Positions 835 through 21,469 of a stretch of 43,807 nucleotides of DNA are shown here, piece after piece. The notes beneath the pieces are model-generated. The model made no database searches and had not been told where the DNA came from. It was given only the letters and a program-made list of their open reading frames with translations. The position numbers were made by a program, and so were the translations under genes. The number at the start of each line of letters is the position of its first letter. The stretch's first letter is position 1. Source of the DNA: a virus (taxonomy: Duplodnaviria; Caudoviricetes); the IMG/VR virus record IMGVR_UViG_3300033146_001939, positions 1 to 43,807 of that record; one strand, given 5' to 3'.

Positions 835-1065
835 TTATGCAGTTAATGGGGCTTTTTTATCATGTTGCCATTTATTTTTTCTGAATTGCTCAACATCTAA
901 GTTGCGGTCTGGCATAATTACAGACTTATAACGAGCAATTTCATTTATGCTATCGCGGTTGGTTCTTTCCCGGAAAAACTTCCGAGCTTTATCTTCACCC
1001 ATTTCGTTAATAGCGTCAGTTATCAATTGGTTTCTAATCCCAATAAACTTTTCTTCTCTGGTCAT
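835..1065 (-). CDS. hypothetical protein (76 aa)
   Basis: ATG overlaps the TAA of the CCA gene (TAATG coupling); AGGAG SD. Confidence 0.7.
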   Translation of the reverse strand: MTREEKFIGIRNQLITDAINEMGEDKARKFFRERTNRDSINEIARYKSVIMPDRNLDVEQFRKNKWQHDKKAPLTA

Positions 1066-2282
1066 TACAGACTCCTTAAAAAGTGTTTTATGTTAGATAC
1101 TCTTATTTGATGCGCTTTTTCTTTTCTTCGTTTTGGGGGAACAGTGGCTAATTCCTCAAAATTAGTATTATTCAACACCTGCTCCAAAATGTCAAATATT
1201 TTTTCTTCTTTTTCCGAGAATGGGTGATCTGACTGAAAAACCAGTTTCATGTCTTGGAAATCTCTTTTCCCAATATCAACAATGAATTTGGCCAGTTTTC
1301 TGGGTTTCATTTCTTCAACTCGATGCCCTTTCATATGTAATTTTGCTGCTTTAGGTACGAATTCTTTTACTCTTTTACTGAATCTATGATTCTCCAAGAA
1401 ATCAGTAGCAATTTTTTCTGAGCGGTCTTCATGCCCGAAATGTTGAGGCAACAATTCTTTCTCAGTAAATGCTTTCCCAAAATCATGAAATACCATAGCC
1501 ATGAAAACATGAAACGGAGCGTCTAATTCTTTCGCCCGATCTATTGTTTTCATGGTGTGGTCGAATGCAGTGTCCGACCCGTGAAATTTTAATGGGCCTC
1601 CTGGGACTTTGTTGAGTTTTGAGAATTCTGGGAAGATTTCGTCGATGATCCCGAGTTCGTTTGCTTTCCTAAAAAATATTGATGGTTTTCTAGATTGTTT
1701 CCAAACTTTGTTAAGTTCCAATACGACTCGCTCTTTCGTGACATGCTTCAACTCTCCTTTGAATTTATCCGCCTGTAAACGAGTATTTAAATCCAAATCA
1801 AAATTAAATCTTGATGCGAATCTTAATGCCCGAAGTATGCGGACTGGGTCATCTTTAAATGAATTAGTATGAGTAACAACAATGCGGCCTTGATCTAAAT
1901 CCTCAAGTCCATTAAACGGATCAACAATTTCTTTCGTAACCACGTTAACAGCAACAGCGTTAAACGTAAAATCTCTTCTCAAGAGATCGTCCTCAATCGA
2001 AACACCCAGTCCAGTCAGTTCGAATGTTCCATAGCCTGAGCCAGTAGAACGTTCAGTTCTTGAAAGGGCAACTTCGTCACCATCAATTAAAAAAACCGGA
2101 AAGTCATTTCCTACAGTTTCAGCGTCCGTGAAGTGTGAGAGGAATTCCTCTTCCGACACGGTAACCACGTAGTCAATATCGTTTACCGGTTGATTTAAAT
2201 GAAGATCTCGGACCGCCCCACCAACAACGAATGTTTTATCGGCGAACGGAGAATCTAATATTTTTTTATTTATTGTAAGCAT
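1065..2282 (-). CDS. cca: class II tRNA nucleotidyltransferase (CCA-adding enzyme) with HD domain
   Basis: Motifs VGGAVRD, DIDY, DLLRRDFTFNA, DDPVRILRALRF, ERV..EL.K, and HD-domain FHDFGK/HFGHE. Start placed at ATG 2282 (MLTINKK) because the track's GTG at 2306 lies inside the promoter spacer. Confidence 0.9.
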   Translation of the reverse strand: MLTINKKILDSPFADKTFVVGGAVRDLHLNQPVNDIDYVVTVSEEEFLSHFTDAETVGNDFPVFLIDGDEVALSRTERSTGSGYGTFELTGLGVSIEDDLLRRDFTFNAVAVNVVTKEIVDPFNGLEDLDQGRIVVTHTNSFKDDPVRILRALRFASRFNFDLDLNTRLQADKFKGELKHVTKERVVLELNKVWKQSRKPSIFFRKANELGIIDEIFPEFSKLNKVPGGPLKFHGSDTAFDHTMKTIDRAKELDAPFHVFMAMVFHDFGKAFTEKELLPQHFGHEDRSEKIATDFLENHRFSKRVKEFVPKAAKLHMKGHRVEEMKPRKLAKFIVDIGKRDFQDMKLVFQSDHPFSEKEEKIFDILEQVLNNTNFEELATVPPKRRKEKAHQIRVSNIKHFLRSL

Positions 2283-2288
2283 GGATAC

Positions 2289-2317
2289 ATAATAACAAAT
2301 ATTCACCTGAATGTAAA
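2289..2317 (-). promoter_or_regulatory. sigma70-type promoter, extended -10 (TTTACA-N17-TATTAT, TG at -15/-14)
   Basis: Motif read directly; ATG 2282 follows the -10 box after 6 nt. Confidence 0.65.
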
Positions 2318-2607: not shown

Positions 2608-4869
2608 ATGTCTTTAAAGTATTATGATGTAAATAGCGAAACGCTAGACAATCGTTTTGCTGGTTTTACACATGGACACGCTATAGAAGCTATCACGAAC
2701 CTTCGAGCTGAATTGGACGCAACTCAGTCAGGGCTTTCTAGCACGTCAGATATTCAATTTAACAACGCAACAGTTTTTGGAGATATTATTCCAGACGCAA
2801 CAAACACGACTGGAACAATCGGATCTGCTGCTAATCCTTGGAGTACAGCTTGGATAGATGAACTCCACCTAGCTAATAACACTCTTTACTTGGGCGACAC
2901 TCCAGTTCTTGGAACAGATTCTAATGTTGTTGAGGTTAAGGCTGACAGCGATCAAGGGATCACTATTAAGACTACTGGTACTGGTGAAACTAAAATGATT
3001 TCTCAGAACGGTATTGAGATTTCCAACTCTGGTTTGAACGGCCAAATCGCTATTCAATCTACGGGAGCTGGTGGTCAAGTATCTTTCGGAGCAACTCAAC
3101 AACTAAATTTCACTGCTCCAGATACTAACGTTTCTGGTGATCTTAATGTCACGGGTGGAGCTCAATTCAATGCTGCTACTTTCACTGGCGACGTTGTTTT
3201 CCAGGGTGATAACATCACAATGGATACTACGAACTTTGTTGCTGAAGATAACAGAATCACTCTTAACTCTGGTGAACAAGGTGATGGGGTTACTGCTGGT
3301 TTTGCTGGATTCCAAATTGATCGTGGTAACTTAAATGATTGGCATTTTGTTTTTAACGAGTTTAATGACGAATTTCAATTTGGTCCAATCGGTGGAACAC
3401 AGCAAATCGTTGTAAGTAAAACATTCGTTGAGACTGGCTTAAATGCTAAACTTGATGCTGCTGTTTTCAATAACACATATACTGCCGCTGATATATTAGC
3501 AAAACTTAAAACAGTTGACGGAGTAAACTCTGGACTTGATGCTGATACTGTTGCTGGATACACTGCTGCTGAATTAACACAAACTGCTGCTGAGATTTTT
3601 GATGCTGTACTTTCTTTAGATGGTCCAGGCACACTTCTTAATGCAGACCTTCTTGATGGCTTTGAAGCTGCATATTTTGCTCCAGGTGCAACCACTTATA
3701 ATAAGACAGAAGTTGACACTGCTGTTAATGTTAAACTTGATGCAAGCGCATATACTGCTGCTGATGTTTTAGCAAAAATTAAAACTGTTGATGGCGCTGG
3801 TTCAGGACTTGATGCTGACACACTTGATGCACATTCTTCAAGTTATTTTGCTCCACAAGCCACAACTTATAATAAGACTGAAGTTGATGCTGCTATTAAT
3901 AACGTTATTGATTCTGCTCCCGGAGCATTAAATACGTTAAATGAACTTGCTGCTGCTCTTGGGGATGATCCTAACTTCGCAACAACAGTCACAAATAATA
4001 TTGCTACTAAATTGCCTACTTCAGCATATACTGCTGCTGATGTTTTGGCAAAAATTAAAACTGTTGATGGTCCAGGGTCTGGATTAAACGCTGACTATCT
4101 GGATAGTCATTCAGCTAGTTACTTTGCTGTCGCTAGTTCAACATACACTGAGTCAGAAGTTAATAACCTTTTATCTAATAAATTAAATGCTTCTTCTTAT
4201 ACCGCTGCAGATGTATTAGCAAAAATTAAAACTGTTGATGGTCCAGGGTCTGGTCTTGATGCTGACACACTTGATGGTCACACAACAACATATTTCTCGA
4301 TCGCTGGTCATGCTCATGATACTCGCTATATGAGAAAAGATACCAACACTACTCATGCTGGTAATATTACGCCAACTTCCAACAATAGTAAATATCTTGG
4401 TTCAGCATCTTACAAATATAAAGGTGTTTACGCTACTACATTTTATGGCAACGCTACATCTGCTAACTATGCTGACCTTGCGGAAAAATATACGATTAAA
4501 TCTAAAGAGGATATCGCTGCTGGTCAAATCGTAGTTATTAGCGATACTGATGAAGTTGATTGTATGATTTCTGAAGTTTATGGTTCACAAGGAGTTATCG
4601 GCGCTGTTTCAACTAATCCAGCGTTCCGTATGAACGAAGATCTTGAAGGTGGCGAATTTGTTGCTCTTAAAGGTCGTATTCCTTGTAGAGTTGTTGGAGC
4701 TGTTAAAAAAGGTGATCCTTTGGTTTCTGCTCCTAATGGCTGTGCTATTAGTATTAATCACCGTGATGTTCCAGGTGATATTAAATTTCTTCAAGGTATT
4801 ATTTTAGGAAAAGCGTTAGCTAGTTCTACTTCTGAAGACGTGAAGGAAATTGAAGTTATTATACTTTAA
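2608..4869 (+). CDS. tail fibre/appendage protein with internal repeats and a C-terminal Peptidase_G2-type intramolecular chaperone
   Basis: 4-5 YTAADVLAKIKTVDGxGSGLDADxLD repeats; P2 gpH-like APGALNTLNELAAALGDDPNFATT; HxH motifs; C-terminal YADLAE...GAVSTNPA...VALKGRIPCRV..KGD..LGKAL; AAGGA SD. Confidence 0.85.
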   Translation: MSLKYYDVNSETLDNRFAGFTHGHAIEAITNLRAELDATQSGLSSTSDIQFNNATVFGDIIPDATNTTGTIGSAANPWSTAWIDELHLANNTLYLGDTPVLGTDSNVVEVKADSDQGITIKTTGTGETKMISQNGIEISNSGLNGQIAIQSTGAGGQVSFGATQQLNFTAPDTNVSGDLNVTGGAQFNAATFTGDVVFQGDNITMDTTNFVAEDNRITLNSGEQGDGVTAGFAGFQIDRGNLNDWHFVFNEFNDEFQFGPIGGTQQIVVSKTFVETGLNAKLDAAVFNNTYTAADILAKLKTVDGVNSGLDADTVAGYTAAELTQTAAEIFDAVLSLDGPGTLLNADLLDGFEAAYFAPGATTYNKTEVDTAVNVKLDASAYTAADVLAKIKTVDGAGSGLDADTLDAHSSSYFAPQATTYNKTEVDAAINNVIDSAPGALNTLNELAAALGDDPNFATTVTNNIATKLPTSAYTAADVLAKIKTVDGPGSGLNADYLDSHSASYFAVASSTYTESEVNNLLSNKLNASSYTAADVLAKIKTVDGPGSGLDADTLDGHTTTYFSIAGHAHDTRYMRKDTNTTHAGNITPTSNNSKYLGSASYKYKGVYATTFYGNATSANYADLAEKYTIKSKEDIAAGQIVVISDTDEVDCMISEVYGSQGVIGAVSTNPAFRMNEDLEGGEFVALKGRIPCRVVGAVKKGDPLVSAPNGCAISINHRDVPGDIKFLQGIILGKALASSTSEDVKEIEVIIL
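3478..4275 (+). repeat. dispersed intragenic repeat, 4 good copies (~3478, 3751, 4027, 4198)
   Basis: Near-identical tatactgctgctgatgttttagcaaaaattaaaactgttgatgg units encoding the fibre repeat. Confidence 0.8.
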
Positions 4870-5050: not shown

Positions 5051-5683
5051 TTAATTTAGAAATATAATTGGTGCTTGAAGGTGCATTACACCACCAGAAA
5101 TTATATCAGTTGTTCCACCAATATTTTTCTTCCAATAAGCACCAACTTGTTCTTGTTCATATTGACCTATTTTTCTTTTTTCATATCCACCAACTTTATC
5201 TGTTTTATTCTTATCGATATTTTCATTCTCATCTAGATAAATATGAACATTATGATTTTTATGAATATGCTCATTATGATCTTTAGAAACTTCAGAATCT
5301 TTTACTCCATTAACGAAGGTTTTCTGATCAGTTTCAACTTTAATAGTCATTAATTCTGGTTCAATATTCGTGTAAGTCCCATTAGGATGAAGAATATAAA
5401 TTCTCTCATTTCCAGCAGTTTCATCTACTAAAATAACATGTCCAGCATGAGTCTCAGTAACAACACGAACCTTGCCATATTTTCCAGCTTCTAGCTGAGG
5501 TTTAATATCTTTCTCGTTGACGTCACCTCCCGCTGAATTGTAAACGATCAAACTATCAGGGACTACTTGTCCTACTGATTTGCCGGGAGTGCGTGCTTCC
5601 TTACCTTCTTCTACGGGTATGAGCTGTTGTTGATAACGACTTGTGAAAGATTCTTTCTCTATTTTTTCTAAAAAGTCTGGCAT
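5051..5683 (-). CDS. baseplate central spike, gp5 C-terminal beta-helix part
   Basis: ETHAGHVILVDETAGNERIYILHPNGTY resembles T4 gp5 ETESGH..EFDDTPG.ER...HP.GTY; 8-residue beta-helix repeats; AAGGA SD. Confidence 0.85.
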   Translation of the reverse strand: MPDFLEKIEKESFTSRYQQQLIPVEEGKEARTPGKSVGQVVPDSLIVYNSAGGDVNEKDIKPQLEAGKYGKVRVVTETHAGHVILVDETAGNERIYILHPNGTYTNIEPELMTIKVETDQKTFVNGVKDSEVSKDHNEHIHKNHNVHIYLDENENIDKNKTDKVGGYEKRKIGQYEQEQVGAYWKKNIGGTTDIISGGVMHLQAPIIFLN

Positions 5684-5684
5684 A

Positions 5685-5990
5685 TTAAGATCCTTTAAGG
5701 CTACGTACCCATCCTAGCCAGATAATCCACATTGGATTTTTTCTGTCAGGGAATTGTACATAAAGATAATCGTCCTTATCTGGAATATCACCAGAAGAAT
5801 ATTTACTAAAAGCTAATCGGTCTGCCCAGATAGCATTTTTTAAACTAGTGTCAGACATATCATGAATGCCCATTACTCTAACAAGCACGCGCTCCATAGC
5901 TTTTGGATCATTATTATCAACCACCAAAGCAATATGAATACCACGTAAATCTACGTCTGATCCATAAGGATTAAAATCTTTTCCGTTCAT
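5685..5990 (-). CDS. gp5 N-terminal OB-fold protein (stand-alone)
   Basis: ALVVDNNDPKAMERVLVRVMGIH matches the gp5/VgrG OB-fold pattern GVVEDR.DP..LGRVRVRV.G.H. Confidence 0.8.
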   Translation of the reverse strand: MNGKDFNPYGSDVDLRGIHIALVVDNNDPKAMERVLVRVMGIHDMSDTSLKNAIWADRLAFSKYSSGDIPDKDDYLYVQFPDRKNPMWIIWLGWVRSLKGS

Positions 5991-11710: not shown

Positions 11711-12268
11711 TTATTTGTATCCTTGAGATGAGCCATCAGATGTAACTAAGTGACCCTCGAATTTAAATGTTACTACTGTTTTAATTATACTGTTATTAGA
11801 GACACTATAATCTAAGTCATTTATTTGGTAAGGCACAGCATTAATGAAAACGTCACCAGCAGAGCCCTTTCCGGCATTATCAGCACTATGTATAACGATA
11901 CTAGAAGATTTAAAATCATCAGGATACCCTCGCACTTTTGATTTTTGATTATAAGCTAAAGATAACCATTTTTCAAATAATATTCTAACTTGCATATCAT
12001 GTGTTTCTAAGAATGAAATCCTTAAATCCTGATCGCTTCGTTCTGTTGCTGTGAATCTAGGTCTACTAGATAGACTCGCCATTTGCATATCTAAGCTTAA
12101 ACCAGATACACTTACATCAACAGCGTTTATTAATAATTTTTCTGAGATTAACCCTGGATCAGCTTTCGGGCCCTGCATCACGACGATATAATTATGTGAA
12201 TATAATAAACCTGTTATAAGATGACTACCTGATGTAAATTCGCTTGGGTCTAATTTAATTTGTGGCAC
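11711..12268 (-). CDS. tail-tube-fold protein (gp54-like tube initiator)
   Basis: LRISFLE..D..VR.LFEKW, YP.DF, F.NA.P, F.F pattern of the gp19/gp54 family. Confidence 0.65.
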   Translation of the reverse strand: MPQIKLDPSEFTSGSHLITGLLYSHNYIVVMQGPKADPGLISEKLLINAVDVSVSGLSLDMQMASLSSRPRFTATERSDQDLRISFLETHDMQVRILFEKWLSLAYNQKSKVRGYPDDFKSSSIVIHSADNAGKGSAGDVFINAVPYQINDLDYSVSNNSIIKTVVTFKFEGHLVTSDGSSQGYK

Positions 12269-12270
12269 GA

Positions 12271-12765
12271 TTATCCCTCTTTAATTCCAGAATATTTAAA
12301 ATTAACAGTGAATTCCATTATATTATTTTCTTCATTTAAAGTGATTTCACTTATTTCAGTCGGCCACATATTGATGAATGTTAATTTATATCCCATTTTG
12401 AAATCTGGCTGGACATATTGAAGTACTCCATCTCCATAATGAGTGCCACCAATAAGTGTTGTTGGAGCATCGCCGGTTTCAACGTTGTTCATGGTTTCAA
12501 ACCATTTCTTAAAAAACTTATAGACTTCAAAATCAATATCTATCACAAACGTGACAGGAAATGCCCCAAGTGTCGGCACTCCTTGAGTCGGTACATTGAA
12601 CCCACGATAAATTAATTCCGGAGCATTTATAGACATAGAGGGGATATTAGTATTTTTTATTGCTAGATCAACCATTGGTTTAGGAGCCATTGGAAACGAC
12701 ATCGTGTACATGTTCGTTCTGGCATAATCTCTAAATTCACTAACTATCTCATTAATACTTTTCAT
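12271..12765 (-). CDS. tail tube protein gp19-like paralogue
   Basis: ARTNMY, VTFVID, F.KW, F.NMWPTEISEITL, F.V.F.Y motifs. Confidence 0.75.
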   Translation of the reverse strand: MKSINEIVSEFRDYARTNMYTMSFPMAPKPMVDLAIKNTNIPSMSINAPELIYRGFNVPTQGVPTLGAFPVTFVIDIDFEVYKFFKKWFETMNNVETGDAPTTLIGGTHYGDGVLQYVQPDFKMGYKLTFINMWPTEISEITLNEENNIMEFTVNFKYSGIKEG

Positions 12766-13278
12766 TTAACTAACTTCCCACCAGTCATATGTGAATGTTG
12801 CTGAAATTTCCGACGGAGCATCGTTAGAATCTGTGCTCAGTTCTGTCGCCTCAATGCTTTTTATCCAGACATTACTAAAAGTGTATGTTTTCACCGCAAC
12901 ATTTTTCCCGTTCATCTGCTGAACAGTTATAAAAGTGTTATTAACATAGTCTTTCAATATGGCTTTCTTATTTGTAGCTAGATCATTAATTTTATCGATC
13001 CAAGCTTCTAAAGCTGACCGAAGTTTTAATTCAGCGTCACTAAGAAAAACGATAGTAAGATCACTATGAGATAAATCTCCAGCTATTTTACGTGTGGCGC
13101 CAAATCTTTTATGTTCTATTTCTGTTAGAGCTTTATCTGGTAGTGATGCAGACTTAGCAGTGTATGATAAAGTCTTATCACCAGCAAAAGACTCTTGTGT
13201 GATAGTCACCAAAAATCGATTTGATCTGGCTACTTCTTTTAAGTTACTTCGGAATTCAGATAAAGTAAACGCTGGCAT
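12766..13278 (-). CDS. tail tube protein gp19-like
   Basis: ARSNRF, KSASLP, KIAGD, LR..LEAW, C-terminal F.YDWWE as in T4 gp19. Confidence 0.85.
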   Translation of the reverse strand: MPAFTLSEFRSNLKEVARSNRFLVTITQESFAGDKTLSYTAKSASLPDKALTEIEHKRFGATRKIAGDLSHSDLTIVFLSDAELKLRSALEAWIDKINDLATNKKAILKDYVNNTFITVQQMNGKNVAVKTYTFSNVWIKSIEATELSTDSNDAPSEISATFTYDWWEVS

Positions 13279-14861: not shown

Positions 14862-16628
14862 TTAATTATGAGGTACTAATCCGTTAGAAGGTGTTAAGTC
14901 TGCTTGCGTAGCTAAAACAGGGACAATATCACTTATTCTTGGATATTCTTTAACCCTTAATACTGTGCTTGAGTCATTTGAATCTGATGTTAAAAGCAAA
15001 TATAGATTATTTATATCATGATCCATATGGAATTCCGGTGGATTAAGCAGAGGTGAAGATAATTCTGCGAATTCTGTGGTTGAAGGATAATTCCCGTCAA
15101 AAAGCAGATTAATTTCTTCCATCACGACCCCAGAACCAGCATGATCTTCAATAGTCAATGTTATCTTTGCTGCCCTAAACACGCTTTTATCAAATGTGGC
15201 AATAGCAACACCCGGTCTAGCATCAAAATGCTCAAGTCTGAGTATGTATTCAGAGTCTTTTAGCTGTTGATATTGAACATCAGTTATATGGTTAACCTGC
15301 GGTGGGATCATTGCGACGCCGTCACCTTGGACGTTCTTTAAAGAATCGTGAGACATGTCAATACTTGTCTCACGTTCAATAGTCTTTTTCCACTCTGAGA
15401 GATCTGACAACCAAAGATATTCTGCCCAACCATCATCAACATCTGGATCGTCAGTGGCATCAATAACATGTACTCTTAATCCGTTATATTGATCGATGAT
15501 CGCGTTTAGAGCAGTGATATCATCAACCACTCTAATATCTCTAAAACTTGGTAAATAATTATCTTCAATTACTCCAAAACTATTTAAAGGAGCCCAACCT
15601 ATAGTTGGTATACCAGCCATATTGCCAACGCCATAAAACGCTGGAGTGGCTAATCTTTCATTGATGAGAATATCATTCGAAGCAACATCTGTGTAAATGA
15701 TAGATAGATCGAAATCATATCCAACGTCTAATGCAGTAACTCGAATTTCATAATCGTTTTCTAAGACGGCCGAAATAAGTGGTTTATTATTTAATTCAGC
15801 AGTCATTTGAGCTACAAGGCTCTGTAGATCGAAGGTAGCAGAGGCCATAAAATATTGAGTGGTCTCGTCTTCGTAGGTTACACCAAATAATTCGCCAGGT
15901 GTTACCACTCCACTAAATGTGAAGATGTATGTTTTATAATCACGAATAAGTGTGGGTTCTTGTAAAAATTTATTTTCTATTTCTGTTTCGTCATTTAGTG
16001 GAGCATAGCCATCCGCTTCACCTTTATGTGTCGTGAATTCAACACCGTTAAATCCACCAGAAGCAGCATTCCATAAACTTTTTTCGTCGTCACTTACCAG
16101 TAATAATTTTTCGTCTGCGTCGAAACCAGTTTGGATAAGTATCTCAGGACTTAATTTTGCGTCATCGTCTAATCTCGGTATACCATTCGCTATATCAAAT
16201 AAATTAGCTAAAGTGACAAAGATTCCAGAATTGGTTGGCATTTCAACAAGCATGCCATCTTTTAGCACACCTATATCGATTTTTCCGTTTAGATCTAAAC
16301 CAGCATACCCAGTTGGTAAATCTTTTTCAGATCTTAATTGATAATTTTGGATAGATGAATTTATGTTGTTCCAATTAATGATATCTTGATCAGAAACAAA
16401 TCTATTAGCGTTATTAGTATTGATATTTTCTGGTAAAATTGTTTCGCCTTTATAAGCAAAAAATCTTACTTGAACACCGTCCCAATAAGCTGGAGCATCT
16501 GATAGCGTATCCCAAAAAATTCTTCCACTCTCCCCCTCAAAAACTTGGTCTGCGTCTCTATGTTCTAGCACAGCTTTTAAGAAGTGGTTAAATTTTAAGT
16601 CTATATCTGTATAAAAATGTTTACTCAT
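14862..16628 (-). CDS. tail fibre-like structural protein (588 aa)
   Basis: Four G(Y/I/W)A.L(D/N)..G.I-type fibre repeats; late operon. Confidence 0.6.
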   Translation of the reverse strand: MSKHFYTDIDLKFNHFLKAVLEHRDADQVFEGESGRIFWDTLSDAPAYWDGVQVRFFAYKGETILPENINTNNANRFVSDQDIINWNNINSSIQNYQLRSEKDLPTGYAGLDLNGKIDIGVLKDGMLVEMPTNSGIFVTLANLFDIANGIPRLDDDAKLSPEILIQTGFDADEKLLLVSDDEKSLWNAASGGFNGVEFTTHKGEADGYAPLNDETEIENKFLQEPTLIRDYKTYIFTFSGVVTPGELFGVTYEDETTQYFMASATFDLQSLVAQMTAELNNKPLISAVLENDYEIRVTALDVGYDFDLSIIYTDVASNDILINERLATPAFYGVGNMAGIPTIGWAPLNSFGVIEDNYLPSFRDIRVVDDITALNAIIDQYNGLRVHVIDATDDPDVDDGWAEYLWLSDLSEWKKTIERETSIDMSHDSLKNVQGDGVAMIPPQVNHITDVQYQQLKDSEYILRLEHFDARPGVAIATFDKSVFRAAKITLTIEDHAGSGVVMEEINLLFDGNYPSTTEFAELSSPLLNPPEFHMDHDINNLYLLLTSDSNDSSTVLRVKEYPRISDIVPVLATQADLTPSNGLVPHN

Positions 16629-17280
16629 TTTCTAATTCACCTAATCTGGCTTTAATTTCAACAAGCTCAGCCTGTTGTTCTTTAAAACCCTGAATAAGAA
16701 CAGCAACCAAATGATCATATGCCAAGCCTTGAACTTCGCCGCCTGTTTTCAAAACTATTTCTGGTAAAACTTTTTCTACTTCCTCAGCAATTAAACCGAT
16801 GTCATAAACACCGCTTTCCTTCCAATTGAAAGTTACACCTTCTAATCTTGAGATAATCTCAGTAGCATTTGAAATCGGGGCAACATTTTCTTTATATCTT
16901 ATAGAAGAAACGGAATTAAATTTAATAGCGTTAATCCCACCATCCCCATCTCGTATTACTATAGAATCATCTTCAGCAAGATGTGTAGCAGTATCGAAAA
17001 GTACTTTATCGTCCCTACTCATTAAACCATGCTGCTGGTGAGTGACCACCATATTCACCCAATTACCATCGATCAATATATACCACACGTCGGGATTAGT
17101 AGAAGTGTTTCTCCATATAGCACCATCAAATAAATTTAAATTTTGATTTAATGGATTATCTTCTCCAACGTAGATTATATTACGAAGCAAATCATTAAGA
17201 TAAACGCTGGTGAAGTTTTCACGTTCACCAGCGATTCTTGCTTTTTCTAATCTATGTCTAAATATTCTTTTTACAGCCAT
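16621..17280 (-). CDS. short fibre protein with Peptidase_S74 intramolecular chaperone
   Basis: SSIRYKENV...L.GVTFNWK...IGLIAEEVEKVLPEIV...Y..LVAVLIQ..KE followed by a coiled coil. Confidence 0.85.
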   Translation of the reverse strand: MAVKRIFRHRLEKARIAGERENFTSVYLNDLLRNIIYVGEDNPLNQNLNLFDGAIWRNTSTNPDVWYILIDGNWVNMVVTHQQHGLMSRDDKVLFDTATHLAEDDSIVIRDGDGGINAIKFNSVSSIRYKENVAPISNATEIISRLEGVTFNWKESGVYDIGLIAEEVEKVLPEIVLKTGGEVQGLAYDHLVAVLIQGFKEQQAELVEIKARLGELENE

Positions 17281-17304: not shown

Positions 17305-18063
17305 TTAATAAGATTCATAGTTACAGTTACAAGTACATGCATAATTACAGTTACAAGTACAATAGTTACAATCGCATGGGCATACTGGCGCCGTGTAGTT
17401 ACAATCACAAGTACAAACGTAGTTACAATCGCAGGTACAGTTATAATTACAATCGCAGGTACAGTTATAATTACAATCGCATGTACAATCATAGTTACAA
17501 TCGCAGGTACAATCATAATTACAATCACAAGTACAAGCGTAGTTACAATCACATGGGCAACCAGTATTATTACAATCACAAGTACAGGCATAGTTACAGT
17601 TACAAGTACATGCGTAGTTACAATCACAAGTACATAAGTAGTTACAGTCGCAAGGACAAGCAATATAAGTAACACAAGTACACGCAGTGTAGTCACAATC
17701 ACAAGTACAAGCAGTATAGTTACAATCGCAAGTACAAGAATAGTTACAGTTACAAGAACAGATCACACCGTCGAAATTAGCATCCTCTTCAATGATTAAC
17801 AGATTTAAGAAATTATCATTTGTTAAGGGTGTGGGTGAAGTGTCGTTAGCAGAGATCAAGTCTCCAGAAATCATGTAATAGACTTCTGAGTCTCCAGCAT
17901 ATTGAGATGCTGAAAAACTTTTTGCTACTGTGTTAAACATTAATGAGACTTGAAATGTCGGAGCAACACTGATGAAAGTAGCTCTTACTTTAGCTATTTT
18001 ATCAGGAGGACAAGTATACGCGTCATCTTTGTATAGTCGTTTAGTTATTATCGTTTTAGCCAT
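17305..18063 (-). CDS. Cys-rich repeat protein (N-terminal beta domain plus 18 CxCxCNY repeats)
   Basis: ATG directly after the upstream TAA with GGAGGA SD; same strand and operon as the fibre genes; synonymous variation between repeats keeps the Cys frame. Confidence 0.8.
   Translation of the reverse strand: MAKTIITKRLYKDDAYTCPPDKIAKVRATFISVAPTFQVSLMFNTVAKSFSASQYAGDSEVYYMISGDLISANDTSPTPLTNDNFLNLLIIEEDANFDGVICSCNCNYSCTCDCNYTACTCDCDYTACTCVTYIACPCDCNYLCTCDCNYACTCNCNYACTCDCNNTGCPCDCNYACTCDCNYDCTCDCNYDCTCDCNYNCTCDCNYNCTCDCNYVCTCDCNYTAPVCPCDCNYCTCNCNYACTCNCNYESY
17308..17760 (-). repeat. coding tandem repeat, ~24-nt unit encoding C-T-C-D-C-N-Y-x
   Basis: 18 units of 21-33 nt, e.g. acaatcgcaggtacagttataatt repeated exactly. 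Confidence 0.9.
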
Positions 18064-18606
18064 TTAAGTTCCTCCAAAAAGGTCTTCGTCGAATAGAAAA
18101 TTCCCGTTCGTTCCGATTTTCTGATCAATTTCTTCTAAAACTTCTTGAACATCGTCACCAAAGAAGTTATCAAAGGGAATATTATTAACTGAAATTGCTG
18201 ATGCTGGATGAGCCCCGATCGCCATGTTGACATGATCAGCAGTTAAACTTGAGATCAACTGCCATGTTTTATCGCCACGTAAATACTGTGAGCTATCGCC
18301 ACCAGCTGGTAAATGAATTAATGAATTCGCCGCATGATTTTCCGCTATCTGGATTCTGCCCTCGAAAGGTCCATTTCCAGAAGCAGCATAACCAATAAAT
18401 GCAGTCAAATCTGTTTTCGTGAATAAAGAAGAAACTATCTTTAAAGGACTTCCTGGAATTCCGGTAGCTTCTGTTATTAAAATTCTATCTGCGAATCCTA
18501 GGGTACTAACTCCAGTACCACCATGCTCTGCGGGTAAAATATTAATCGCTCCGGTTAAATCATATTCCACGTACCTGTTGTCTAATAAGTCTGCCATATT
18601 TTCCAC
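18064..18606 (-). CDS. fibre-like structural protein (alternative start ATG 18597)
   Basis: LPAEHGGTG fibre motif, YLRGD.TW, and an HPASAI...VQEVLEEI motif shared with 18636..20930. Confidence 0.65.
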   Translation of the reverse strand: MENMADLLDNRYVEYDLTGAINILPAEHGGTGVSTLGFADRILITEATGIPGSPLKIVSSLFTKTDLTAFIGYAASGNGPFEGRIQIAENHAANSLIHLPAGGDSSQYLRGDKTWQLISSLTADHVNMAIGAHPASAISVNNIPFDNFFGDDVQEVLEEIDQKIGTNGNFLFDEDLFGGT

Positions 18607-18627: not shown

Positions 18628-18635
18628 TATTTATA
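18628..18635 (-). promoter_or_regulatory. T4-type late promoter TATAAATA
   Basis: Exact motif immediately after the stop of 18636..20930; would drive the 18064-13326 genes. Confidence 0.7.
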
Positions 18636-20930
18636 TTATTGAGAGAACCGCCATCCACCACTATTGTTATAGAAAACTAAGAAAATCATAGAGTGGTCAG
18701 TATCAAAAACTTTAGAACCAGCAGCGCCCATAAACGGTTTACCATTAGGGTCGATTGTTAGATTATTAGTTGAAAACGTTCCGCCAAAATCCATGATTCT
18801 AATCACTTCCCAGTTTTCTGGTGTAGCTGGTAGAGTAATAGTGAACGGACCATCTGTCGTATCAGCTAAAATCTTTTCCCAGTGTTTTGCGTTATAAACA
18901 GCGTTCTTAAAATTCCAAGTTTTATCATCAGTGTGAATAGCATCAAAATCTAGTAAAACCTCTTGAACATTATTAGCTGAAGTATTATCAAGAACAGTTC
19001 CGTCAGCAAAAATAGCAGAAGCATAATGAGCGTTTGTAGTTAAATCAATATGTGATGTAAGCGCAGTTAATGCAGCAGTATCTAATTCAGTAAAAGCGGT
19101 TTGCCAATCTTCGACGTTCTCAATTCGCGTGTTCATTGAAGATAAAGACGTTGTTGATGCGCCACTTAAATCTACGTAACCATATTTTTCATAAAATTCT
19201 AAAATATCACCCGGTTCAAGACCCTTATGCATATTAACGATAGCTGAACTTACTTCAGTATAGTCAACATCTAATATTTGTCGAACACGGTTCACATATA
19301 ACTCAAGAGCTTTATCGCCGATACTATATTTAGCGTTGTTAGGTAAAACTAGATCAGTATCAGGTAAATGAACTTCTTGAATAGTAAGAAATTCACGCAT
19401 GCGAGTGTAAGGTGAAGATGAATAATTCCATATACCATAAAACACAGCAAAACTATGAAAAATCACTGTTGGCTCATTCCATTTAAACTTTAAGTAGAAT
19501 TGAGTAATTGGCACGACACTTTGAATCGTTTCATTAAGATCAACATCAATCCATTCTGGACTATTAATTGCTGGTGGAGCAGCGGGGTCACTTTCAAAAA
19601 GAGTATAAGCAACAGAAAGACCTGCGTTATTAAACTTATCTGTTAAAGCATGGATGAAGAATGTGAATGAGTTATTTTCGTCCTCAGTTCTCCAAATGTT
19701 TTGAGTTATCACGTAGCTATCAAGCAAAGGATCAATGGTTTTATAAGTACTATTCTCAGTATCGTAATCTACGTTCACAGAAATTACAGTACTATCTTGC
19801 CCTATCTCGTCGAACAAATCATAGTAAGCGTCGCCATAACAAGTTTTATCTAGAATTTCAGCAAAGTATTCCAACTCGCATTGGTTGTCAGATGCGCCAT
19901 CCCCAGTTCCAAATATCTTCCATTCAATACCATCGTGCGTGTATTCCCAACGATTGATAGACTCATTATATCGAATACCAGTAGAAGGGTGGTCACCTCT
20001 TCGAACCATTAAGCTGAAATAGTCACTAGGAATTCCAGTAGTTTGGCGATTATTAACAACCATGCTACCGCCCTCAAGAACAAGCTTAGCATTCTCTCCA
20101 ACGACCGCGTCTTTTTCAGCTAAGAAACCTTCGTCGAAAGTAATAACACCTTCAGCATGATCATCAATGTCTTTTCTTAAAAAGAACTCGTCAGACTGGA
20201 GTTTTGTGTACATGTTCTGACTCAACACGTCTAACAGAGCTTGAATATCAGTGTCTGAAGAAGTGAATAATCTAAAATAATTTATTCCATCATAACTGAC
20301 TTCATAAAAATTATCATTGACTCCGTCATTTGAGTACCGAATGTAATCAGTAAAAATACAGCGGTTGCGCTCAAGATTTAAAGCGAAAGTCCCTCTTACG
20401 ATCGAAATATTATGAATTAAAATATTATTATCATCTAAAGAGATAAAGTTTATTTTAGGCATATCACCTGGAACAATAGCACCAGTTTCAAAAGTATAAC
20501 TTTGGCGTACTCTGAGTGGTGTGTCGAATTCGTCTATTTCATGTTTCAAAATAGTGGTCGGTGGATTTAAATTCGATTTATTATAGAAGTCAATAAACTC
20601 AGAATTGCCCATAGTTTCAAAAGCAACACGAATATCAGCAGAAGCTACGAAATCAACAAGTAAAGTATAAACTTCGTTTGCTTTTAGTTTAAACATGTCT
20701 TGCTTGAACCAGTCTCCATCACCAAGATGAAATTCATTTCCATCTATGGTGGTAGAAGAATCATAACTTGATACCTGCTTTAGCCCAGCAAAAACTTCAA
20801 CGTTGTCCATATGAGGATTAACGACATAGTTTTCCATGCTAGATTCACTGAACTCGTCAATAAATTTATTATAGATGCTTTTAATGTTAAAAAGCGATGC
20901 ATTATTCGGAATTATGAAAGTTTCATTCAT
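18636..20930 (-). CDS. large virion/fibre-network protein (764 aa)
   Basis: N-terminus paralogous to 21475..23691; LELYVNRVRQ..DY.E module; C-terminal DTT.GPFTITLPATP...D..GTF.TNNL domain. Confidence 0.65.
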   Translation of the reverse strand: MNETFIIPNNASLFNIKSIYNKFIDEFSESSMENYVVNPHMDNVEVFAGLKQVSSYDSSTTIDGNEFHLGDGDWFKQDMFKLKANEVYTLLVDFVASADIRVAFETMGNSEFIDFYNKSNLNPPTTILKHEIDEFDTPLRVRQSYTFETGAIVPGDMPKINFISLDDNNILIHNISIVRGTFALNLERNRCIFTDYIRYSNDGVNDNFYEVSYDGINYFRLFTSSDTDIQALLDVLSQNMYTKLQSDEFFLRKDIDDHAEGVITFDEGFLAEKDAVVGENAKLVLEGGSMVVNNRQTTGIPSDYFSLMVRRGDHPSTGIRYNESINRWEYTHDGIEWKIFGTGDGASDNQCELEYFAEILDKTCYGDAYYDLFDEIGQDSTVISVNVDYDTENSTYKTIDPLLDSYVITQNIWRTEDENNSFTFFIHALTDKFNNAGLSVAYTLFESDPAAPPAINSPEWIDVDLNETIQSVVPITQFYLKFKWNEPTVIFHSFAVFYGIWNYSSSPYTRMREFLTIQEVHLPDTDLVLPNNAKYSIGDKALELYVNRVRQILDVDYTEVSSAIVNMHKGLEPGDILEFYEKYGYVDLSGASTTSLSSMNTRIENVEDWQTAFTELDTAALTALTSHIDLTTNAHYASAIFADGTVLDNTSANNVQEVLLDFDAIHTDDKTWNFKNAVYNAKHWEKILADTTDGPFTITLPATPENWEVIRIMDFGGTFSTNNLTIDPNGKPFMGAAGSKVFDTDHSMIFLVFYNNSGGWRFSQ

Positions 20931-20941
20931 ATTTAACTCAC

Positions 20942-21469
20942 TTATATGTCAAGTTGTAAAAAGTTAATAATTTTGTTTATTTGTTCTTGTTGCGCTTTGA
21001 TCGCTTCGACCAAAAGTCCGGTTAAACTATTATAAGAAATACCGATGATTTTTCCTTCATCATCTCTCGAAACAACTTCCGGTAAAATTTCGTCTACCTC
21101 TTCAGCAATCAATCCCATATCAGGAGCGCCTGATGCTTTCCAGTTAAACGTTACACCTTTTAAGCTCATGATTAAAGAAATAGCACTTTGAATTCTTTCT
21201 ACGTTTTCTTTAAACTCAATAGAAGAAGTCGAATGAAATTTATTAGCGAATAACGCCCCCTCAGAATCTCGTTGTGGGATAGTGTTTGGTATTGACCATA
21301 CAGAGGATCCGTGAACGCTACTAGTGAGGTTGATGTGGTTTGTAAATCCACTAGATTCCATCTCTTCTAAAAGACGTATATAATTTAAAGTAGTTTTATC
21401 AGTAGGTGTTGGTGTTACGGTTATCTCTCTACCGATTCCCTGTACTTCTTTTACAATGTGTTCAGCCAT
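20942..21469 (-). CDS. short protein with Peptidase_S74 intramolecular chaperone
   Basis: SSIEFKENV...LKGVTFNWK...GLIAEEVDEILPEVV...Y..L..LLVEAIK.QQ.QI. Confidence 0.85.
   Translation of the reverse strand: MAEHIVKEVQGIGREITVTPTPTDKTTLNYIRLLEEMESSGFTNHINLTSSVHGSSVWSIPNTIPQRDSEGALFANKFHSTSSIEFKENVERIQSAISLIMSLKGVTFNWKASGAPDMGLIAEEVDEILPEVVSRDDEGKIIGISYNSLTGLLVEAIKAQQEQINKIINFLQLDI

Follow-up and report, generated by a model that had tools for sequence, protein, structure and literature searches.

What a protein ending in a dense cysteine repeat does in a late tail operon is the question raised by this locus. The window, by which we mean the whole stretch of 43,807 nucleotides analysed here, covers the tail and baseplate genes of a T4-like phage and is a fragment about 23% complete. 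A first-pass annotation of this DNA had considered three fates for the repeat protein: (a) a virion appendage binding metal ions or Fe-S clusters along a solenoid, (b) a substrate of a radical SAM (rSAM)/SPASM maturase, i.e. a RiPP-like modified structural protein, and (c) a disulfide-locked fibre. Our analysis suggests, with a probability of roughly one half, that the protein (P0001) is a fibre tip cross-linked by phage rSAM/SPASM enzymes encoded outside this fragment. The following features of the window bear on the question:

16621..17280, minus strand: S74-chaperone gene (Pfam Peptidase_S74), downstream of P0001, conserved
17305..18063, minus strand: Cys-repeat gene P0001 (252 aa) with a match to PHROG 26958, likely a module for the fibre tip
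17308..17760, minus strand: repeat region of P0001, 18 units C-[T/P/S]-C-[D/N]-C-N-Y, residues 102-252
17761..18063, minus strand: N-terminal domain of P0001, predicted all-beta (AlphaFold2, single sequence), residues 1-101
18064..18597, minus strand: fibre anchor/shaft gene, 177 aa counted from the ATG; in relatives the protein runs on from this point into a variable tip domain
18070..18075, minus strand: GGAGGA, Shine-Dalgarno-like, within the last codons of the anchor gene and 6 nt before the P0001 ATG
18628..18635, minus strand: TATAAATA octamer preceding the anchor gene, which we take to be the T4-type late promoter consensus
18636..20930, minus strand: tail/fibre-type structural gene, upstream, conserved in relatives

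Sequence of the repeat protein

Translation of the P0001 reading frame gives 54 cysteines in total, 53 of them within residues 102-252, in agreement with the first-pass annotation, which had counted 53 in about 150 residues behind an N-terminal domain of about 100 residues. Its title of 18 CxCxCNY repeats holds for the number of units but was slightly generous on the motif: 17 of the units have three cysteines (15 fit CxCxCNY strictly, the other two read CTCDCDY and CTCDCNN), and one two-Cys unit completes the 18. The last unit is followed by three residues, with no S74 motif after the repeat. Cysteine makes up 21% of P0001 compared with a median of 0.4% for the 47 open reading frames of the window, and shuffling the repeat region 10,000 times produced a mean of 0.44 and a maximum of 5 units versus the 17 observed. 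Because the 17 full units are written in 15 different DNA sequences, and GC3 (0.28) matches that of the neighbouring genes, selection seems to act on the protein sequence, and a DNA microsatellite is not the explanation. Unit positions 4 and 6 are kept as Asn, Asp or Gln, and 38 of the 53 repeat cysteines have Asp (16/53) or Asn (22/53) at i+3.

The N-terminal domain was modelled from the single sequence as an all-beta fold of six strands (AlphaFold2, pLDDT 60). Sequence searches with these 101 residues returned no credible homologue, three apparent matches being spurious and inflated by the repeat; matches in the ESM Atlas are unnamed, and Foldseek gave nothing at E<=0.001 and weak beta-sandwich rows only. 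Neither the fibre tips of the relatives described below nor a 106-aa small tail protein with an apparent resemblance gave a BLAST alignment to the domain.

Operon and fibre position

The anchor gene ends in a TAA that directly abuts the P0001 ATG in frame, a junction that the first-pass annotation does not mention. The elements of the operon proposed there were recovered: the GGAGGA ahead of P0001 is present at the spacing given above, the S74 gene behind it has its Pfam match, and the octamer of late-promoter type stands at the head of the operon. About five octamers of the TATAAATA type are expected by chance on the minus strand of the window, so that one alone is weak evidence; this one lies ahead of the same anchor gene in all five relatives.

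These syntenic relatives (L050-L052, L068 and L078, mostly 40-60% identity) share the N-terminal fibre anchor with the window. Each of their fibres has a tip of its own (one Collar, one Gly_rich_2, one Gp53-like_C and two without a name), five different ones in all, and P0001 is missing from every one of them, the fibre gene being followed directly by the S74 gene. On gene order, P0001 occupies the slot that holds a variable fibre tip in the relatives: it follows a conserved anchor, at the end that varies, within a late operon. Since the fibre of the window stops at 177 aa, P0001 sits in the tip slot and the tips of the relatives differ, the gene probably supplies an exchangeable fibre tip, and the virion-appendage role proposed earlier is supported by its position. 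Taken together with the predicted fold of the N-terminal domain, we infer a chimeric gene in which an all-beta domain replaces the helical domain typical of the repeat family (see below). The downstream S74 gene was considered as a chaperone dedicated to P0001 and rejected, as all five relatives keep it without P0001.

The best gp32 and hub-protein matches of the window phage are of cyanophage type (about 40% identity or less), on which grounds a Campylobacter-phage-like genome was rejected; judged by these matches, the phage is without a close cultured relative. Longer relatives covering the rest of its genome were searched for, and none was found.

The window holds further genes of the tail region. 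A second short S74 protein is encoded at 20942-21469 (minus strand), where the C-terminal parts of the relatives are unrelated, marking another variable fibre position. Three tandem gp19 tail-tube paralogues at 11711-13278 are conserved in the relatives; multiple gp19 genes have been reported in Campylobacter phages as well. The gp5 hub/spike homologue is split into two reading frames (5051-5990, minus strand) in which no lysozyme domain was detected, and a phage tRNA nucleotidyltransferase with an HD domain lies at 1065-2306 (minus strand). The lone plus-strand tail-fibre gene (2608-4869) has its own TATAAATA at 2538, and parts of it match the fibre family that precedes a trio of rSAM genes in L034, L010 and L042, probably through shared fibre/chaperone domains.

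A widespread family of repeat proteins

P0001 has one match in PHROG (26958, E 1e-9, function unknown) and none in Pfam or NCBIfam, and neither P0001 nor a family profile found a match in a PDB sequence search. With tblastn, P0001 had no match among cultured phages either, a negative that the low-complexity filter probably explains. A protein search from P0001 retrieved 169 homologues at E<=0.001, by which the repeat family is widespread in phages. Tandem CxC[D/N/Q]CNY units spaced at 7-8 residues are the family trait and are found in P0001. The typical order is optional CxxH repeats, a helical domain, the CxC[N/D/Q]CNY repeat and an S74 start motif. Among the 120 matches listed of the 169, 53 carry the N-terminal CxxH repeats and 74 the S74 start motif after the Cys repeat, of which 63 end shortly afterwards and 11 run into a longer domain, while 46 are without the motif. 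A three-helix N-terminal domain was recognised in 60 of 61 other distinct N-terminal parts (>=8 bits), whereas its profile has no match in P0001.

AlphaFold2 with a 100-sequence alignment led by the family member P0087 modelled the three-helix domain and an S74 domain confidently and the repeat with pLDDT <50 and no regular structure; Foldseek found no fold match for this model. S74 domains act as chaperones for trimeric fibres and cleave themselves, and their presence on family members ties the family to fibres. The rest of the S74 domain is the next gene in 6 of 27 representative loci, of which Pfam confirmed four and missed one tested. In the six split loci (L013, L022, L028, L031, L033 and L034) the repeat protein ends about 12 residues past the S74 start motif and the remainder is a separate gene of 88-103 aa, which two tandem repeat genes share in L013. 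Two other members, P0074 (weak Pfam match) and P0003 (no Pfam match), have a Hint-like C-terminal domain, another self-cleaving module, after the repeat in place of S74. In L001, L002 and L109, of T4-like lineage, the repeat gene lies right behind very long Gly/Ser/Ala-repeat fibres, and the contig ends just downstream.

Radical SAM genes accompany the repeat

Whether carriers of the repeat co-encode radical SAM/SPASM genes was a question already raised by the first-pass annotation. Searching DNA with two patterns that describe consecutive units, and proteins once, we collected 117 loci, dropped five in which no repeat reading frame was called (L030, L049, L147, L151 and L153) and grouped the remainder by their N-terminal parts at 70% identity, which gave 38 clusters. 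An rSAM gene is present in the flanks retrieved (at most 10 kb on either side) in 35 of the 38 clusters as compared to none of 29 control loci, which were fetched via tail or gp32 genes and are redundant and not random; in 31 clusters it lies within two genes of the repeat gene. The loci themselves supplied the 29 proteins behind the rSAM profile; Pfam and NCBIfam confirm the rSAM assignment independently. In two of the three clusters lacking rSAM genes the contig stops 0-1.6 kb downstream, and one of the two records shows no rSAM gene in 60 kb upstream. The third is L154, which has no rSAM gene nearby but orthologues of two rSAM families (41% and 32% identity) on another contig of its bin, although binning could mix genomes.

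In a first scan, three rSAM families were present in 25, 23 and 21 of 27 representative loci, mostly one to six genes upstream of the repeat gene, together with two unnamed accessory families (23 and 21 of 27) and a fibre-type family upstream (15/27). NCBIfam classified 24 of 30 neighbour proteins as rSAM-type with PapB as the best match for 23, all scoring far below the cut-off (183 at best versus 340 bits), and none of the 24 reached the cut-offs of the maturase models PapB (NF047865), TIGR04463 or TIGR04115. By profile similarity and gene neighbourhood, the three families are PapB-like and linked to the repeat family and to fibre genes. This family-level linkage, with the thioether-forming PapB family as the closest relative, makes RiPP-like maturation (option b) the best reading.

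Downstream of the repeat gene lie further rSAM genes and sugar-modifying genes (glycosyltransferase, epimerase, aminotransferase), and because the two are mixed some of the rSAM enzymes may act on other substrates. The region downstream in L003-L047 packs as many as 10 rSAM genes into 20 kb, alongside glycosyltransferases, epimerases, 2OG oxygenases and carbamoyl-/aminotransferases, and is possibly a virion glycosylation or modification island.

The window itself contributes nothing to this linkage: the profile search detected neither rSAM nor accessory genes of the module on either side of P0001 (17 kb downstream, 26 kb upstream), as the first-pass annotation had stated for rSAM, nor in the fragments of four relatives. 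Option (b) has thus gained strong support at the family level and none within the window. The P0001 locus adds positional evidence that the clustered loci lack, namely a repeat gene where five relatives have five ordinary tips; it is the clearest fibre-tip position, but without the enzymes.

Scattered modules in cultured Campylobacter phages

A cultured carrier of the repeat is Campylobacter phage CP220 (Firehammervirus), whose protein CPT_0180 (PHROG 26958; 534 aa, encoded at 161-162.5 kb) has six matches to the repeat pattern. Homologues of CPT_0180 were found in 15 of 50,697 phage records, all of them Campylobacter phages. CP220 has 11 rSAM matches, including orthologues of all three families: CPT_0184 (35% identity) lies 2.2 kb past the repeat gene, and the other two are encoded at 16.4 kb (37%) and 84.0 kb (33%), which puts them some 31 and 76 kb from the repeat gene when the map is read as a circle. 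The rSAM module can hence be scattered, yet one enzyme stays close; no complete genome with all three families far from the repeat gene was found. The accessory families have weak matches in these Campylobacter phages (E 1e-3 and 3e-6).

In the available text of the 2010 CP220 report, the repeat is noted only as 21-bp DNA units in a hypothetical gene, the 11 rSAM proteins are described as probable metabolic enzymes and highly unusual, and CPT_0180 is not among the 11 identified virion bands, which comprise major bands only (PMC2853527). For phage IBB_35, in which the gene of interest is 3-9 by our count (AEF56812), the accessible part of the report gives 38 virion proteins (PMC3322345). Homologues of CPT_0180 in HE815464 (CP21_105) and OP654737 are annotated as N-acetylneuraminate pyruvate lyase, a likely misannotation, since Pfam finds no such lyase domain in CPT_0180.

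Proposed maturation and alternative explanations

We propose that P0001 would be expressed late, together with the fibre anchor, and that its N-terminal domain would dock on the shortened fibre. Unlinked rSAM/SPASM enzymes, predicted in the missing part of the genome, would act on the repeat and install thioethers from Cys to Asp or Asn along it, an i to i+3 geometry that fits the first two cysteines of each unit. Such cross-links could stiffen a chain that lacks a hydrophobic core and would not need an oxidising compartment; the third cysteine of the unit may stay free for metal or further modification, and the stiffened repeat would be displayed at the fibre end. CP220 and L154 are precedents for rSAM genes unlinked from the repeat gene. 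More tentatively, the repeat may be a receptor-binding tip that large phages have stapled by dozens of RiPP-type rSAM thioethers, a swappable part grafted on an ordinary anchor and served in trans, which would explain at least three of the 11 rSAM proteins of CP220.

Several observations count against the main reading, among them the rSAM scores far below the PapB cut-off, the one rSAM gene that stays near the repeat gene in CP220, the absence of CPT_0180 from the major virion bands and the mixing of rSAM with sugar-modifying genes. No rSAM gene is encoded in the window or in the four relatives' fragments, and the S74 motif is missing. Many of the putative acceptors in P0001 are Asn, whereas PapB uses Asp/Glu. 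If the helical domain that P0001 lacks is the recognition leader, P0001 may escape processing. Alternatively, the repeat may have been captured as a new fibre tip without its maturases, the product being unmodified and stabilised by metal or post-lysis disulfides, or decaying; the lack of rSAM genes in the window and in the relatives' fragments and the absence of the gene from all five relatives and of both the helical domain and the S74 motif from P0001 agree with this. We consider such a capture doubtful, given that the fragment is about 23% complete, that rSAM genes are unlinked in CP220 and L154, and that the repeat is intact, long, synonymously diversified and native-like in GC3. Quite unlikely, too, is a fibre segment that binds many metal ions or Fe-S clusters in all members of the family, with the rSAM enzymes acting elsewhere, for example on virion glycans or DNA, or helping to load clusters. 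Cysteine density, the CxxH repeats in 53 of the 120 listed homologues and the presence of genes for glycosyltransferase, epimerase and aminotransferase alongside would suit it, as would a metal-binding role suggested for CrpA itself in the available text on that protein (PMC13692751), but the nearest relatives of the three rSAM families are peptide thioether maturases, the genes of these families immediately precede the repeat gene, and unit positions 4 and 6 are occupied by Asn, Asp or Gln as expected of acceptors. The solenoid of option (a) finds no support in the AlphaFold2 model of the family member, where the repeat is of low confidence and without regular structure, and leaves the rSAM linkage unexplained. 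Cross-linking and metal binding are not mutually exclusive. The disulfide-locked fibre of option (c) likewise finds no support in that low-confidence model, and the rSAM linkage would be unexplained here as well.

Two further explanations dispense with a separate virion tip. P0001 might act inside the cell, for instance as an Fe-S or sulfur store for the phage rSAM enzymes or as a precursor cut into small modified peptides, and the repeat could be freed by C-terminal domains of the S74 or Hint-like type; CPT_0180 is also absent from the CP220 bands in the available report, although these are major bands only. The late-promoter fibre operon, the tip slot in this lineage, the S74 fibre chaperone on homologues and the fibre genes upstream of the clusters make an intracellular product very unlikely. 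It is highly improbable that P0001 is the C-terminal half of a single 430-aa fibre divided by a TAA that is read through, recently mutated or an assembly error: the TAA does abut the ATG in frame and the relatives carry their tip as one polypeptide, but a well-spaced GGAGGA precedes the P0001 ATG and in-frame abutting occurs elsewhere in the window (12765/12766 and 37973/37974). We retain the rSAM-cross-linked fibre tip as the main reading. If true, virion structural proteins can be matured by natural-product chemistry and a covalently stiffened fibre can be built in a reducing cytoplasm; the unusual rSAM genes of CP220 would have a testable substrate, in phages that can be grown, and would represent new protein-acting thioether enzymes.

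Comparison with known systems

In a literature search that covered few subscription journals, neither the modification of virion proteins by rSAM enzymes nor the CxC[D/N]CNY repeat was described. The available texts on the Thermus rSAM/DUF483 module (PMC11437467) and on cyanophage S-SCSM2R (PMC12801897) do not describe this repeat system. This kind of thioether chemistry is already known and would be new only in its application to a phage fibre. The chemical precedent on a protein is CrpC, a SPASM rSAM enzyme of Methanococcus voltae (TIGR04463), which according to the accessible part of the report installs ranthionine thioethers on CrpA; this protein of 29 kDa has C-X-X-Q/D motifs in its C-terminal Cys repeats and engages the enzyme through its N-terminal domain (PMC13692751). 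Whereas CrpA, as far as that text describes it, is an archaeal cellular protein with a 17-residue repeat and one adjacent enzyme, the repeat described here belongs to a phage tail operon, has three cysteines in 7-8 residues and lacks an enzyme in the fragment, and the three phage rSAM families score far below the TIGR04463 cut-off. PapB, of the PapB/PapA ranthipeptide system, requires a leader and joins cysteines to Asp/Glu, and it copes with nested motifs and with CX0-6D spacing, according to the portion of the report available (PMC9413430). It is the best NCBIfam match of 23 of the 24 neighbouring rSAM-type proteins, but below cut-off, and its substrate PapA, in that same portion, is a short leader peptide with CX3D/E, in contrast to CX2D/N in a folded structural protein here.

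CPT_0180 resembles P0001 in the repeat, and the CP220 genome has orthologues of the three rSAM families; it differs in its length of 534 aa and its N-terminal region, and the window phage is not close to the Campylobacter phages. No sequence or fold match links P0001 to S74-chaperoned fibres or gp38-type tips, and to our knowledge gp38-type tips are neither Cys-rich nor cross-linked by enzymes. The likeness lies in the arrangement of the genes: tip adhesins of the T2 gp38 type are encoded in a late operon by a separate, exchangeable tip gene behind the fibre anchor gene, and the P0001 locus likewise consists of an anchor gene followed by a putative tip gene.
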